A stretch of DNA of 36,354 nucleotides from Calditrichia bacterium (GCA_050633245.1 JBOEGD010000006.1:331-36684), one strand, 5' to 3'. Shown: positions 20,789 through 30,993, counted from the first letter of the stretch. The notes: generated by a model from the letters alone, not told the origin. Numbers and translations: made by a program.

Positions 20789-21553
20789 TCAGGAAAGAAT
20801 ATCTGCAATTGCCTGCATAAAGCCTTCAGGCTTCTCGGCGTGAACCCAATGGCCGGCTCCCTCAACGGTACGAAAATCTGCGGCGGGAAAGTGTTCTAAA
20901 ATAGCAGAGTGGTCAGCAGGAGTGATATAGTTCGATTTGCTTCCATTTATAAACCGGGCAGATCCGGGGAATTGCGTTAAAACAAGAGGAGCTGCGGTAA
21001 GTGCGTTCAGGTTTTCAGTGAGAACCGGGAGATTCATTTTCCAGGCAAATCCATTCTCTTCCGTACGGCGAACATTTTTTAAAAGGAAACCACGCAGTCC
21101 GGCATCTGGCAACTTGGCAGAGAGTGCGGTATCAATCTCACCGCGACTTTGAAAGTCACCGAGTTCAAGACTTGATAATGCTGTAAAGATAGTGTCAAAT
21201 GCGCCTGAAGGATATTGCTTGGGAGCAATGTCTAAAGAGATCAACTGTTTTACCGCGGATGGATACTTCATAGCGAAGGTCATAGCGGTTTTACCGCCCA
21301 TGGAGTGCCCAATTAGCGTTAATCGCTCTAACTGCAATTTTTGAACATAAGCATAGAGATCATCTGCCATTAACTCATAGCTCATCTCGGTACTATGTGG
21401 AGAACGACCATGATTACGCTGGTCAATAAGATGAACCTGAAACGTTTCAGCCATTCGTTTGCCGAGGGTAAACCAATTATCGGAAGATCCCAACAGGCCG
21501 TGCAGAATGGCAATCGGTTCTCCAGACCCTATAGATTTAGCAAACAATTCCAC
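20789..21553 (-). CDS. Alpha/beta hydrolase, YbfF-like esterase
   Basis: LHGLLGSSDNW, DQRNHGRS, GHSMGG, GHWVHAEKP. Confidence 0.9.
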   Translation of the reverse strand: MELFAKSIGSGEPIAILHGLLGSSDNWFTLGKRMAETFQVHLIDQRNHGRSPHSTEMSYELMADDLYAYVQKLQLERLTLIGHSMGGKTAMTFAMKYPSAVKQLISLDIAPKQYPSGAFDTIFTALSSLELGDFQSRGEIDTALSAKLPDAGLRGFLLKNVRRTEENGFAWKMNLPVLTENLNALTAAPLVLTQFPGSARFINGSKSNYITPADHSAILEHFPAADFRTVEGAGHWVHAEKPEGFMQAIADILS

Positions 21554-21555
21554 GC

Positions 21556-21948
21556 TTACATGCCTATGCTCTGTAAAACGCCGGGTACCGGCAATCTATC
21601 TTCGTAGGAGCCCCCGATCGGGTAATAGTATGCGACTCGATCTTCATCTGAACGCCAGCAAAGCACTATGGATTCACCATTTATTTCAGAGGGATATTCC
21701 ACTAAAGCCACATCGGCATTATGCTCACGGTAGGCGCAGCCTAAATCTGCAAGCTCATCTTTAAACTGATCGATCCAGCTTTTTTCCTGTCGATAGTCTG
21801 GTTCCAGCGGCGCATATTCACCATGCTCCTGCAGCAAAAGCTGTAATTGGCGTTCACTTTTCAATATATCCTCAACAATACGTCGCACTAATGGCAGCGT
21901 ACGAGTTGCACTTTCAGCAGTAAATTGAATATCTATTTCGTAACTCAT
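21556..21948 (-). CDS. DUF2203 family protein
   Basis: FTAESATRTLPLVRRIV...LVEYP...LCWRSDE...Y pattern; start MSYEI (21948) with GAAAGGAG RBS. Confidence 0.8.
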   Translation of the reverse strand: MSYEIDIQFTAESATRTLPLVRRIVEDILKSERQLQLLLQEHGEYAPLEPDYRQEKSWIDQFKDELADLGCAYREHNADVALVEYPSEINGESIVLCWRSDEDRVAYYYPIGGSYEDRLPVPGVLQSIGM

Positions 21949-21967
21949 ATTGCTCCTTTCGTTTTGG

Positions 21968-21996
21968 AAGATGTGAAGGAGTTTTTTCGTAGTCAA
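21968..21996 (-). promoter_or_regulatory. Candidate sigma70 promoter of the DUF2203-esterase operon
   Basis: TTGACT-N17-CATCTT on the minus strand, just upstream of the RBS. Confidence 0.45.
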
Positions 21997-22022
21997 GAAG
22001 AAGTTTAATTGCACAAAAAAAA

Positions 22023-22083
22023 GGAGGTATCTCTACATAGACCTCACGTAATGTGAGAGCGCCCCTGGTGTAGAAATACCTCC
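22023..22083 (-). ncRNA. Structured repeat unit 1 (putative ncRNA), followed by U8
   Basis: 15-bp outer stem, inner stem CUCAC/GUGAG, invariant CAGGGGCGCUCU; A8 at 22015-22022. Confidence 0.65.
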
Positions 22084-22136
22084 CTAAAGCTGTCTTTAAT
22101 ATCGGCAAAAATGGTGAGAGATTTAGGGCGAATTAC

Positions 22137-22199
22137 GGAGTCGTTCTCGCCTATTGTCCTGCGTTACCGCAAGAGCGCCCCTGTGGCGAGAACGACTCC
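22137..22199 (-). ncRNA. Structured repeat unit 2 (putative ncRNA)
   Basis: Perfect 15-bp outer stem GGAGTCGTTCTCGCC/GGCGAGAACGACTCC; same core. Confidence 0.65.
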
Positions 22200-22230
22200 T
22201 TCAAAAAAAGCAATAGTGGTACTTAAATAC

Positions 22231-22293
22231 GGAGGTGTTCCCGCTTATTGTCCTGCGTTATCGCAAGAGCGCCCCTGTAGCAGGAACACCTCC
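22231..22293 (-). ncRNA. Structured repeat unit 3 (putative ncRNA)
   Basis: 15-bp outer stem with one G-U pair on the minus strand; same core. Confidence 0.65.
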
Positions 22294-22364
22294 TATTCAA
22301 AAATTAAGTATGCGCTAAATTCTGTTTGAGACCTGGCAAGCAAAAATCAGTTTTAAAAAATTAA

Positions 22365-22427
22365 GAAGGCGCCTTCGCTAAAAACCCTGCGTTACCGCAA
22401 GAGCGCCCCTGTAGCAAAGACGCCTTC
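22365..22427 (-). ncRNA. Structured repeat unit 4 (putative ncRNA)
   Basis: 16-bp outer stem with two G-U pairs on the minus strand; same core. Confidence 0.65.
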
Positions 22428-22483
22428 ATTATTATATCAAAATTGAGTTGATTTTCATTTATGAGATGTGTTGTAAAATTGTC

Positions 22484-22545
22484 GGAGGCACCTTCACTAA
22501 AACCCTGCGTTTTCGCAAGAGCGCCCCTGTAGTGAAGGTCCCCCC
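22484..22545 (-). ncRNA. Structured repeat unit 5 (putative ncRNA)
   Basis: 16-bp outer stem (one G-U pair, one mismatch); same core. Confidence 0.65.
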
Positions 22546-22613
22546 GAACTTAACATATCGCTGAAAATTGTATGTATGAGATCTTAATTCTTTACATTCC
22601 GGAGACAAAAAAT

Positions 22614-22676
22614 AGAGGCGCCTTCGCTAAAAACCCTGCGTTACCGCAAGAGCGCCCCTGTAGCAAAGACGCCTCT
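22614..22676 (-). ncRNA. Structured repeat unit 6 (putative ncRNA)
   Basis: Inner 59 nt identical to unit 4, outer 2 bp changed compensatorily; begins 8 nt after the aquaporin stop codon. Confidence 0.65.
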
Positions 22677-22684
22677 GTATATTT

Positions 22685-23305
22685 TTATACTTCGTCTGGA
22701 TTAAACACTTTAAATAAAATGGCCGCAAGTGCTCCACCCAATAACGGACCGATAATGTAGACCCACACACCACTAATCGATGAGCCGCCCTGCGTCAGAT
22801 CGAAAAGAGATGGGCCAAAAGCCACCGCCGGGTTAATTGCACATCCGGAAATATTACCAATCGCATACGCTGAAGCCGTTATTGTGAGTCCAATGGCAAG
22901 GCCATAAATATAGTTGCCTTCAAGTGCCTTCGTAGTCGCAGTATTTAAGACGACAGAAGCAAGAACAAATGTAAAGAGAATCTCTGCGACCAAAACCTTA
23001 GCGACTCCTACACCAGCTCCTGCAGCAACGGTAAATCCTTTTCCTTGAAACCAGTACGCGAGAACAGCGGCGGCAAACGCTCCGGCAACCTGTGATATCA
23101 TGTAGCCAGGCACATCCTTGGAATCCATTTTCCCTCGCATTAAGACAGCTAGCGTCACAGCGGGATTAAAATGCCCCCCGGATACATGGCCACCCACGTA
23201 AACCATAAGCATAAGCATTACACCAATAGCCAACGGATTTCCTGATAATGCGATGACAAGAACGAAGAACAACGTTCCGACAAACTCCATTAGGTAATTT
23301 TTCAT
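22685..23305 (-). CDS. Aquaporin / MIP family channel
   Basis: SGGHFNPAVT and AINPA motifs, multiple hydrophobic helices. Confidence 0.95.
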   Translation of the reverse strand: MKNYLMEFVGTLFFVLVIALSGNPLAIGVMLMLMVYVGGHVSGGHFNPAVTLAVLMRGKMDSKDVPGYMISQVAGAFAAAVLAYWFQGKGFTVAAGAGVGVAKVLVAEILFTFVLASVVLNTATTKALEGNYIYGLAIGLTITASAYAIGNISGCAINPAVAFGPSLFDLTQGGSSISGVWVYIIGPLLGGALAAILFKVFNPDEV

Positions 23306-23840
23306 CTCTTCTCCTGCTAGTAATTAAACAGCATTCAATTAACCCTGTCCTTCTCCTGTCATGTTTTAAGACTTGTAACGCATAAGAAAGTCACACAAAA
23401 GTTAAAAGCGATCCTAAATTCTATAAAAACAGCAACATTCAACACACTGTTTTTAAAGTTAGTAAAAATAATGAAGAATGGAATTTTGAATTTTGGTGTT
23501 ATTTGAACAATGTTTAGCAGAAGATAATAAATCATTTACAAATTTACAAAAGCAGTTAGCGTATTTTTATAGCTATTTTCGCATATATTATCACAACAAG
23601 ATTCTTTGCTCTTATCTATATCAAAATTAACTTCTGTATTATACAGAGTGGGATAAAATTACAGAGCCATCTGAAGGTGATCTGTCGCCCTTGTTTCGGA
23701 TGCTGTAGATGTGAAAACATGGTCCAATAATTCACTTACAGAATAGTTGCCAAAACGACTGCTTACGCTGTAACACGTCTGTTATCATTTTGAAACACAA
23801 GGAAAACAATTAACGGCAAAACTAACCATAGAGGAATACT

Positions 23841-25802: not shown

Positions 25803-26177
25803 TCAGCCTCTGGTTGAATTCATTAATCGCGTTAGCATCATAAACGATCGATACAATCGAGTTCTTATTTCGCCATCAAGTTCTGAATCGATAAACCCTG
25901 CTCTGCGAGATATTTCGAGCTGGGTATCCAATTCCACCAAAGACGAGCGCGATATTTCGAAGAACCGCCTCCTTTCCTTACTTGATTTGCGCGAGGCTCC
26001 CTCTGAAATATTTGACACCACAGATGTGCAGGTTTTACGAAGATGGGCTGCAAGACCATAAGTCTCTCGTTTTGGAAAGCTTACAGTTAAGACAAAAATA
26101 AATTCAGTTAAATCCATAGCCTCTTCCCAAACCTTTAGGTTCTTATGTCCCAACCGTAGATACAATGTATTCTCCAA
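25803..26177 (-). CDS. Four-helix-bundle protein (23S rRNA IVP / bAvd-like family)
   Basis: HKNLKVWEEAM...FPKRETYGL...SVVSNISEGASR...FFEISRSSLVELDTQL. Confidence 0.9.
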   Translation of the reverse strand: MENTLYLRLGHKNLKVWEEAMDLTEFIFVLTVSFPKRETYGLAAHLRKTCTSVVSNISEGASRKSSKERRRFFEISRSSLVELDTQLEISRRAGFIDSELDGEIRTRLYRSFMMLTRLMNSTRG

Positions 26178-30652: not shown

Positions 30653-30870
30653 ACACCTACCTGCCATATGAACAAGAGAGTGAGTTAACATCTAGATGAC
30701 GATAGAAAATATCGTGCTGAGCCGAGTCGAAATGCACATTTTCATAAAACCGGCTATCGAACACATGAAGACAAAGGCACTTGTTTGAATTAAGTGCACA
30801 GCAAATCGCGACCATTTTCATCACCATTTTGGCCCGATTGTAAAATCATTCACTAGATAGTTTTTTTCTC

Positions 30871-30899
30871 TTGACAGCCTACCCAGATATACCTATATT
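30871..30899 (+). promoter_or_regulatory. Sigma70 promoter of tRNA-Lys
   Basis: TTGACA-N17-TATATT. Confidence 0.8.
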
Positions 30900-30920
30900 G
30901 TGCGACTTGAAACGAAGTAC

Positions 30921-30993
30921 GGGCCCATAGCTCAGCTGGTAGAGCACCGGACTTTTAATCCGTTGGTCGCAGGTTCGATCCCTGCTGGGCTCA
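30921..30993 (+). tRNA. tRNA-Lys (TTT), CCA not encoded
   Basis: Acceptor stem GGGCCCA/TGGGCTC, D arm AGCTCAGCTGGTAGAGC, anticodon loop CTTTTAA, T loop GGTTCGATCC. Confidence 0.97.

Follow-up and report, generated by a model that had tools for sequence, protein, structure and literature searches.

The window analyzed here, a 36,354-nucleotide (nt) stretch of DNA from a Calditrichia bacterium (GCA_050633245.1, JBOEGD010000006.1:331-36684), carries an array of six hairpin units (region 22015-22684), each 61 to 63 nt long, between a MIP-family aquaporin gene (aqp) and a DUF2203 gene, both of which lie on the minus strand. A preliminary description, made from the sequence alone, had proposed the array (units starting at 22023, 22137, 22231, 22365, 22484, and 22614) as a set of covarying hairpins, and searches for inverted repeats and for the shared core motif recovered the same six units with the same starts and lengths. 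Two covariance models were built, R1 from the six window units and R2 from 15 units, the latter drawing also on homologous arrays found on two metagenome contigs, L071 and L096. The features of the locus, in the order in which the minus strand is read, are as follows.

22685..23305, minus strand: MIP-family aquaporin gene, aqp (Pfam PF00230, E 9.9e-39; NCBIfam MIP/aquaporin Z), with its stop codon at 22685-22687.
22614..22676, minus strand: unit W6, type I, with a 16-base-pair (bp) outer stem and the loop CAGGGGCGCU (R1, 86.7 bits; fold -36.2 kcal/mol, z -5.8); its inner hairpin, CUUGCG-GUAA-CGCAGG, is followed by U5 and was flagged as terminator-like, with the tail AUUUUUUG past the unit.
22482..22547, minus strand: unit W5, type I, with its core at 22484-22545 and a stem extendable to 18 bp.
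22365..22427, minus strand: unit W4, type I, 94% identical to W6, of which it is a recent duplicate.
22320..22360, minus strand: spacer block ahead of the type II unit, UUUUUGCUU...GGUCUCAAA, conserved in sequence in three arrays (L071 ~2640-2690).
22231..22293, minus strand: unit W3, type II, whose 5' arm GGAGGUGUUCCUGC is identical in the L071 orthologue.
22137..22199, minus strand: unit W2, type III, with a perfect 15-bp stem and without a U-rich tail.
22023-22083, plus U8 at 22015-22022, minus strand: unit W1, type IV, the terminal unit, with the inner hairpin CUCAC-AUUAC-GUGAG; it resembles an intrinsic terminator.
21949..22014, minus strand: leader of the DUF2203 gene, strongly conserved in three arrays (L071 2976-3050; L096 269-352).
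21556..21948, minus strand: DUF2203 gene, encoding 130 amino acids (Pfam PF09969, E 1.8e-18).
20789..21553, minus strand: gene for an alpha/beta hydrolase (esterase), which comes next in the conserved cluster.

The spacers between the six units are AU-rich and measure 53, 31, 71, 56, and 68 nt from W1 upward, and the start-to-start spacing is irregular (94 to 134 nt). The outer inverted repeats are 15 to 18 bp long and 89 to 100% complementary, and the units as a whole share 54 to 94% pairwise identity. One 12-mer, AGAGCGCCCCTG on the plus strand and CAGGGGCGCUCU on the minus strand, occurs once in every unit. When the window was searched for it with up to one mismatch allowed, six sites were found, all of them exact and all inside units, while shuffled windows held a mean of 0.04 sites and reached six in 0 of 100 cases; the core is thus as invariant among the six copies as had been claimed. 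The inner hairpin reads CUUGCG/CGCAGG in five of the six copies and CUCAC/GUGAG in copy 1 (W1), a covariation that the alignment bears out, and copy 1 is followed on the minus strand by exactly eight U (the plus-strand A-run at 22015-22022), again as described. The apical loops of the units are GUAA, AAAA, AUAA, and AUUAC.

Each unit consists of a 15- to 16-bp stem around an asymmetric internal loop, topped by an inner hairpin of 5 to 6 bp. The 5' side of the internal loop, CAGGGGCGCU (10 nt), is invariant, as are the loop-closing pairs C14-G50, C27-G42, and U28-G41, the U-G pair being kept in all type I to III units. Across the 15 units, CAGGGGCGCUCU is identical in 15/15, along with C14, G50, A40, and G41, and the loop is predicted to be mostly unpaired in types II to IV. 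We also considered loop-loop kissing, which was rejected as unsupported because the core self-duplex (-16.1 kcal/mol) was matched by 12.7% of shuffles.

To assess covariation, we compared the alignments with 500 shuffles and with versions in which the partner column had been slid. In the six-copy alignment, 11 of the 16 outer pairs had changed on both sides and 93.9% of cells were paired; these values were reached by 0/500 shuffles, and slid columns paired in 44 to 50% of cells. The 15-unit alignment, drawn from three sources, gave both-side changes at 12/16 outer pairs with 93.8% of cells paired, its covariation score was likewise reached by 0/500 shuffles, and the slid controls again paired in 44 to 50%. 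The covarying outer stems reported in the preliminary description are therefore real, since neither type of control reproduced them.

The two strands differ in how well they fold. All six units gave a more stable fold on the minus strand, at -30.0 to -37.8 kcal/mol (z -5.3 to -6.7) compared with -22.0 to -33.7 kcal/mol on the plus strand. Read on the minus strand, the stems of the six window units contain 12 G-U pairs, no C-A, and one other mismatch; read on the gene-sense strand, the 297 stem cells of all 15 units comprise 256 Watson-Crick pairs, 34 G-U, 1 C-A, and 6 others. Since the 34 G-U cells would be mismatches on the opposite strand, an RNA in the sense of aqp and DUF2203 is predicted and a double-stranded DNA element is disfavored. 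Folded in one piece, the entire array reached -268.5 kcal/mol, compared with -193.4 ± 6.4 kcal/mol for shuffles (z -11.7), and retained all six hairpins. Together, the asymmetry between G-U and C-A and the fold energies support the reading of the array as a structured RNA on the minus strand, which is the strand of both flanking genes.

The homologous arrays comprise five units on L071 (A1 to A5; a 1.59-Mb metagenome contig) and four on L096 (B1 to B4; also a metagenome contig). Each of them is likewise flanked by an aquaporin gene and a DUF2203 gene and lies on the coding strand, and on L071 the same hydrolase and response-regulator genes come next. The units of the three arrays fall into four types.

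Type I: window W6, W5, and W4; L071 A1 and A2; L096 B1.
Type II: window W3; L071 A3; L096 B2.
Type III: window W2; L071 A4; L096 B3.
Type IV, terminal, with a different inner hairpin and always with U8: window W1; L071 A5; L096 B4.

The four types keep their order across the three arrays, which puts four units in the ancestral array, with type I amplified independently, to three copies in this genome. W5 is orthologous to the first two units of L071 and the first of L096 (90 to 92% identity), W3 has the same stem pair as A3 at 13 of 16 positions, and W4 differs from W6 by compensatory double changes at two stem-base pairs. Because the L071 and L096 units are 90 to 100% identical (98 to 100% in the first three types), we counted these two contigs as one lineage.

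Between the window and L071, the four flanking proteins are 63 to 66% identical and four-fold degenerate sites are saturated (70/235 identical, ~30%). Over the same distance, 273 of 349 unit columns are identical (78%), compared with 190 of 329 spacer columns (58%). Compensatory double changes number four between W2 and A4 and five between W1 and A5, against the two that separate the young duplicates W6 and W4. The homologous arrays, the covariation between orthologues, and the invariant core together demonstrate purifying selection on the array, which keeps the fold and an exposed, invariant G-rich motif, as the preliminary description had supposed. Covariation that extends to homologues outside this genome, over the two independent lineages available, qualifies the array as a new structured-RNA family.

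We searched widely for known families and further copies. In Rfam 15, the sole match in the whole window was the tRNA at 30921-30993; in the region 21900-22800, with E-values up to 10 admitted, four matches were returned, the best of which (E 1.5) scored 16.8 bits against a gathering score of 200. When R1 was run on the genome (6.35 Mb, 59 contigs, 45% G+C), it recovered the six array units only (150 of 713 candidates scored), and the 12-mer with up to one mismatch was found at 17 sites, six in the array and 11 as scattered singles; all six genomic copies of the unit thus lie at one locus and in one orientation. R1 found no copy in 60 relatives, and R2 found none in 85 other genomes of the phylum under stricter filters (62 candidates scored per genome). 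The exact 12-mer is not clustered in any other genome of the phylum, and its single matches in 13 of them are without hairpin context (best E 0.099). Viral contigs, plasmids, and phages gave no match to the array. Among genome and metagenome contigs, an earlier, stricter pattern returned nothing; a scan for two exact 11-mers 95 to 125 nt apart, which diverged arrays would escape, returned 29 genome and 31 metagenome loci, of which the covariance model accepted only L071 and L096. The other 58 were discarded as chance matches (best E 0.2). A hairpin near DUF2203 in genus g11 that resembles the type II stem was also put down to chance, as it lies inside a 454-residue coding frame on the opposite strand.

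Among 13 open reading frames between 16.4 and 30.7 kb, Pfam identified no cas, integrase, reverse transcriptase, or toxin family and no transposase near the array, and PADLOC had no match in six open reading frames, which agrees with the earlier statement that no gene of the first four kinds is adjacent. A CRISPR array is contradicted by the irregular spacing, by repeat stems that differ, and by the lack of cas in the 13 neighboring open reading frames. Taken together, the Rfam, covariance-model, and PADLOC searches leave intact the claim that this is not a known Rfam family, a repetitive extragenic palindrome (REP) or miniature inverted-repeat transposable element (MITE), a CRISPR, or a type III antitoxin. 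Four findings had been named in advance as fatal to the proposal, and the three that were looked for, namely a known family, dispersed copies, and missing covariation, did not turn up.

These searches also bear on whether the array might act at the DNA level alone, as a REP- or MITE-like repeat, a cruciform, or a site bound by a protein. The units are palindromic, the 12-bp invariant box might serve as an operator, and compared with family relatives the array is an insertion (see below), all of which such a repeat would explain. However, 34 G-U against a single C-A is unexpected for double-stranded DNA, the six copies sit together at one locus and all point the same way, the other 85 genomes of the phylum yielded none, and neither a phage, plasmid, or viral-contig match nor a nearby transposase or integrase was found, so that we give this explanation next to no credence.

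The gene order in relatives sheds light on how the array arose. DUF2203 is present in 14 of 15 family relatives, and an aquaporin gene adjoins it at 3 of these 14 loci (L028, L036, and L032, in relatives G006, G009, and G003, respectively), where the distance from the aqp stop to the DUF2203 start is -1, -4, and +18 nt. Because the two genes overlap or sit 18 nt apart in these relatives, the array is a lineage-specific insert of ~0.63 to 0.73 kb into a formerly coupled aqp-DUF2203 pair; and since the coupled pair occurs there without the array, the cluster of aqp, DUF2203, and hydrolase genes is the older of the two. A response-regulator gene follows the hydrolase gene in the same cluster, and its C-terminal part matched no Pfam family, ANTAR included.

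The position of the array also constrains its transcription. The first unit begins 8 nt past the aqp stop codon in the window and 29 nt past it in L071, a gap that leaves no room for a promoter, so that this unit would belong to the aqp transcript. A scan of 21500-23700 for sigma-70-type promoters found two sites, compared with 4.1 expected, one of them on the minus strand within the array. This is an extended -10-like site before W4 (22458-22431, minus strand; ATGAAA-16-TATAAT preceded by TG, hence TGnTATAAT-like) that ends 3 nt before the unit and could provide this lineage-specific duplicate with a transcript of its own. Such a scan is applicable here, since the tRNA gene of the window (30860-30993 including upstream sequence, plus strand; 71.3 bits) has a canonical TTGACA-N17-TATATT promoter, from which it follows that the organism uses sigma-70-type boxes. 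The conserved spacer block before the type II unit has no conserved fold (consensus -0.69 kcal/mol) and could be a putative internal promoter or processing site; it loosely resembles the extracytoplasmic function (ECF)-type promoter AAACT/GAATC-N16-17-GTCTCAAA, a highly degenerate pattern with 86 matches in a genome scan, 21 of them seemingly intergenic. As far as sequence can tell, the anatomy points to co-transcription with aqp over six independent small RNA (sRNA) genes. The interpretation offered in the preliminary description therefore survives in part: the selected fold and motif, the RNA on the minus strand, and the lack of a known family all stand, and the sibling sRNA units, the seed, and the titration that it had suggested are hypotheses.

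U-rich tails follow the type I units, in three of which the inner hairpin and U5 were flagged as terminator-like. Type III units are without a U tail, and type IV units carry U8 in 3/3 arrays. The terminal unit is a predicted intrinsic (Rho-independent) terminator, with a 15-bp stem of -30 kcal/mol followed by U8. Beyond it, the DUF2203 leader holds TTGAYT-N17-CATCTT and CUCCUU...AAGGAG, the latter a possible hairpin sequestering the Shine-Dalgarno sequence; the consensus fold of the leader has 10 pairs, none covarying, and both a promoter role and an anti-Shine-Dalgarno role are putative.

Could the array then be a purely cis-acting stack of hairpins and terminators that ends and stabilizes the aquaporin mRNA and insulates DUF2203, with no trans partner? 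Its location immediately past the aqp stop codon, the U-rich tails of type I and the U8 of type IV in all arrays, and the terminator-like inner hairpins would all suit this role, and so would the coupling of the two genes in relatives, which the insert undoes, and the conserved leader that DUF2203 has to itself. Neither termination nor stabilization, however, needs a 12-nt core that stays identical in 15/15 units despite turnover in the stems and at four-fold sites, nor does it need four to six copies, and type III has no U tail at all. We regard a stack acting only in cis as distinctly unlikely.

The terminal unit is likewise relevant to the notion of tandem ligand-binding aptamers, which would tune read-through into DUF2203 in the manner of a riboswitch. 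Here, the asymmetric internal loop between two helices with its invariant closing pairs is aptamer-like, and the terminal unit is itself a terminator upstream of DUF2203. Yet no Rfam riboswitch matched, no alternative pairing that could serve as an antiterminator is apparent, a stem of 15 perfect pairs would cause termination whatever the ligand, and the units begin inside the aqp 3' end, all of which makes tandem aptamers extremely improbable. We know of no riboswitch with four to six copies.

We put at roughly even the prospect that the array is co-transcribed with aqp and that its units display the invariant internal loop to one common partner, probably a protein. In such a scheme, the minus-strand transcript would carry the array as a 3' extension of the aquaporin mRNA within an ancestrally tight aqp-DUF2203 operon, and all units would present the same recognition site to one trans-acting partner, for which an RNA-binding protein is the likeliest candidate. 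The invariant side of the loop and its invariant closing pairs argue for a protein site and, less likely, for a small ligand; in sequence terms, an invariant core in a loop closed by invariant pairs suggests a site for either of these more than a classical seed. Since four to six copies would sit on one transcript, multivalent binding or titration is suggested, and the RNA may act whole or after cutting. Endonucleolytic cuts in the AU-rich spacers may yield stable hairpin RNAs of ~65 to 90 nt; the genome encodes an RNase E/G homologue, and release of single hairpin RNAs by an RNase E/G-type activity is possible by analogy with known systems. The type IV unit with its U8 would terminate the transcript and set DUF2203, with its own conserved leader, apart. 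A more specific and tentative version of this scheme is a multivalent decoy or scaffold, in which four to six copies of the 10-nt G-rich loop site would capture an RNA-binding protein and couple the water channel to a post-transcriptional regulon; alternatively, the loops might seed the mRNA of a LuxR-type regulator that has two complementary sites.

Several observations weigh against co-transcribed units with a common protein partner. The arrays represent two independent lineages only (the window and L071/L096), with covariation coming from paralogues and one orthologous comparison. Termination or mRNA stabilization alone could account for stems of -30 to -38 kcal/mol and U-rich tails, and a seed or a ligand pocket could explain the invariant loop equally well. 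No recognizable RNA-binding domain was found in the neighbor genes. The AlphaFold2 model of DUF2203 (pLDDT 88, pTM 0.80), a long helical hairpin (residues 12 to 69) with a small four-stranded beta domain, had no Foldseek match at E ≤ 0.001, and VIA retrieved only generic coiled coils (Z ≤ 7.8).

If the loop were a seed, the units would be sibling base-pairing sRNAs, made from the aqp 3' untranslated region (3'UTR) or from internal promoters, with CAGGGGCGCU pairing to C-rich mRNA sites AGCGCCCCUG. The prediction that the motif is mostly unpaired in types II to IV would fit such a role, as would an architecture like that of the 3'UTR-derived CcsR1-4 RNAs, the TGnTATAAT-like site before W4, and the conserved spacer block before type II. 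In addition, the complement of the core 10-mer occurs five times in the genome outside the array, and two of these sites flank a single gene on contig C12 (~111888-112700; L007/L113) for a LuxR/NarL-type response regulator of 214 amino acids: AGCGCCCCTG lies 18 nt before the ATG, beside the Shine-Dalgarno sequence, and the exact 12-mer AGAGCGCCCCTG lies just 3' of the gene, both being complementary to the loop core of the array. On the other hand, the complement is not clearly enriched (five non-array sites compared with three for the reversed control 10-mer), and the best family matches to the C12 regulator are paralogues of at most 42% identity. Hfq was not found in the genome, an internal loop between two helices is an unusual position for a seed, and invariant closing pairs, U-G included, are unnecessary for one. 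We therefore think sibling sRNAs unlikely.

If the partner is a protein, CsrA deserves consideration, as in a sponge of the CsrB/RsmZ kind. The genome has a single csrA gene (contig C7 192407-192565, L110), which lies directly downstream of dnaK-grpE, outside any flagellar locus; the hairpins occur in multiple copies; and the loop ACAGGGG loosely resembles the ACA-GGA core of CsrA sites. Yet GGA occurs 9 times in the 733-nt array compared with 9.8 expected, and 0/9 are unpaired in the minimum free energy fold. The apical loops are the four given above, the core reads GGG in place of the GGA that CsrA sites carry, and CsrA sites are degenerate, unlike a 12-nt invariant core. The CsrA antagonist FliW is also present (fliW on contig C14). 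A CsrA sponge is accordingly highly improbable.

As for DUF2203 itself, no PDB sequence match was found, and the Atlas gave only further DUF2203 clusters. Among the papers that literature searches listed, one mentions DUF2203, in a proteome list, and none connects aqpZ to hairpins of this kind. Elsewhere in the window, a member of the 23S rRNA intervening-sequence protein family (PF05635) is encoded at 25803-26177 (minus strand), with no rRNA gene nearby in the window.

To our knowledge, no riboregulator has been described in this phylum, which is small, poorly studied, and dominated by uncultured members, with 86 species genomes in the collection searched. The array exemplifies a tandem RNA array that was inserted between translationally coupled genes and long kept, one of its unit types having been amplified in only one lineage. 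Should the internal loop be a protein site, it would form part of a new RNA-protein recognition pair and of a sponge-like regulator outside the Csr paradigm; should it be a seed, 3'UTR-derived sibling sRNAs would extend to a new phylum. The narrow range, three sources in two lineages, limits the immediate impact.

Several known systems resemble the array in part. REPs occur as hundreds of dispersed copies in both orientations. Like the array, REPs and the bacterial interspersed mosaic elements (BIMEs) that they form (e.g., between malE and malF) are stable hairpins between operon genes, where they likely shield the 3' end of the upstream mRNA; the array differs in that its six copies share a single locus and a single orientation and carry an invariant loop. 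In ToxI, the repeats are contiguous, almost identical, and 34 to 36 nt long, and the adjacent toxin cuts them. Type III toxin-antitoxin loci of this kind share with the array the order of tandem RNA repeats, terminator, and protein gene on the same strand, whereas the stems of the array differ (units 54 to 94% identical) and its spacers are 31 to 71 nt long; furthermore, DUF2203 has no toxin match in PADLOC or Pfam and occurs without repeats in relatives. The CsrB/RsmZ sRNAs, like the array, carry many copies of a short hairpin-displayed motif on one transcript, and csrA is present in the genome. They are defined by unpaired GGA motifs, in contrast to the array, where GGA is neither enriched nor unpaired (0/9) and the motif is 12 nt, invariant, and placed in an internal loop.

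Sibling sRNAs (Qrr, LhrC, and others) are, in one published account, several related small RNAs that share a common conserved region, some of them in tandem (PMC4211561). Such families have individual promoters and terminators and single-stranded seeds, unlike the array, in which unit promoters are without statistical support and the core lies in an internal loop. The closest analogue is provided by the CcsR1-4 ("cuckoo") RNAs of Rhodobacter sphaeroides and other Alphaproteobacteria, for which release of single hairpin RNAs from a 3'UTR transcript by RNase E-type processing is reported (PMC8034643). In both, tandem homologous hairpins come right after a protein gene, in the order of gene, tandem hairpins, and terminator, and a conserved motif is exposed. 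The two nevertheless belong to different phyla, and neither their sequences nor Rfam reveals any similarity. A CcsR unit is made of two hairpins that carry CCUCCUCCC in the apical loops, and the units are linked to DUF1127; the array units have one long stem with a G-rich internal loop, CCUCCUCCC occurs neither in the array nor on either strand of the window, and the neighbors are a MIP aquaporin and DUF2203 instead of DUF1127. The array, which no Rfam model recognizes, is thus most aptly regarded as a new family of structured RNAs, one of a general kind already known.

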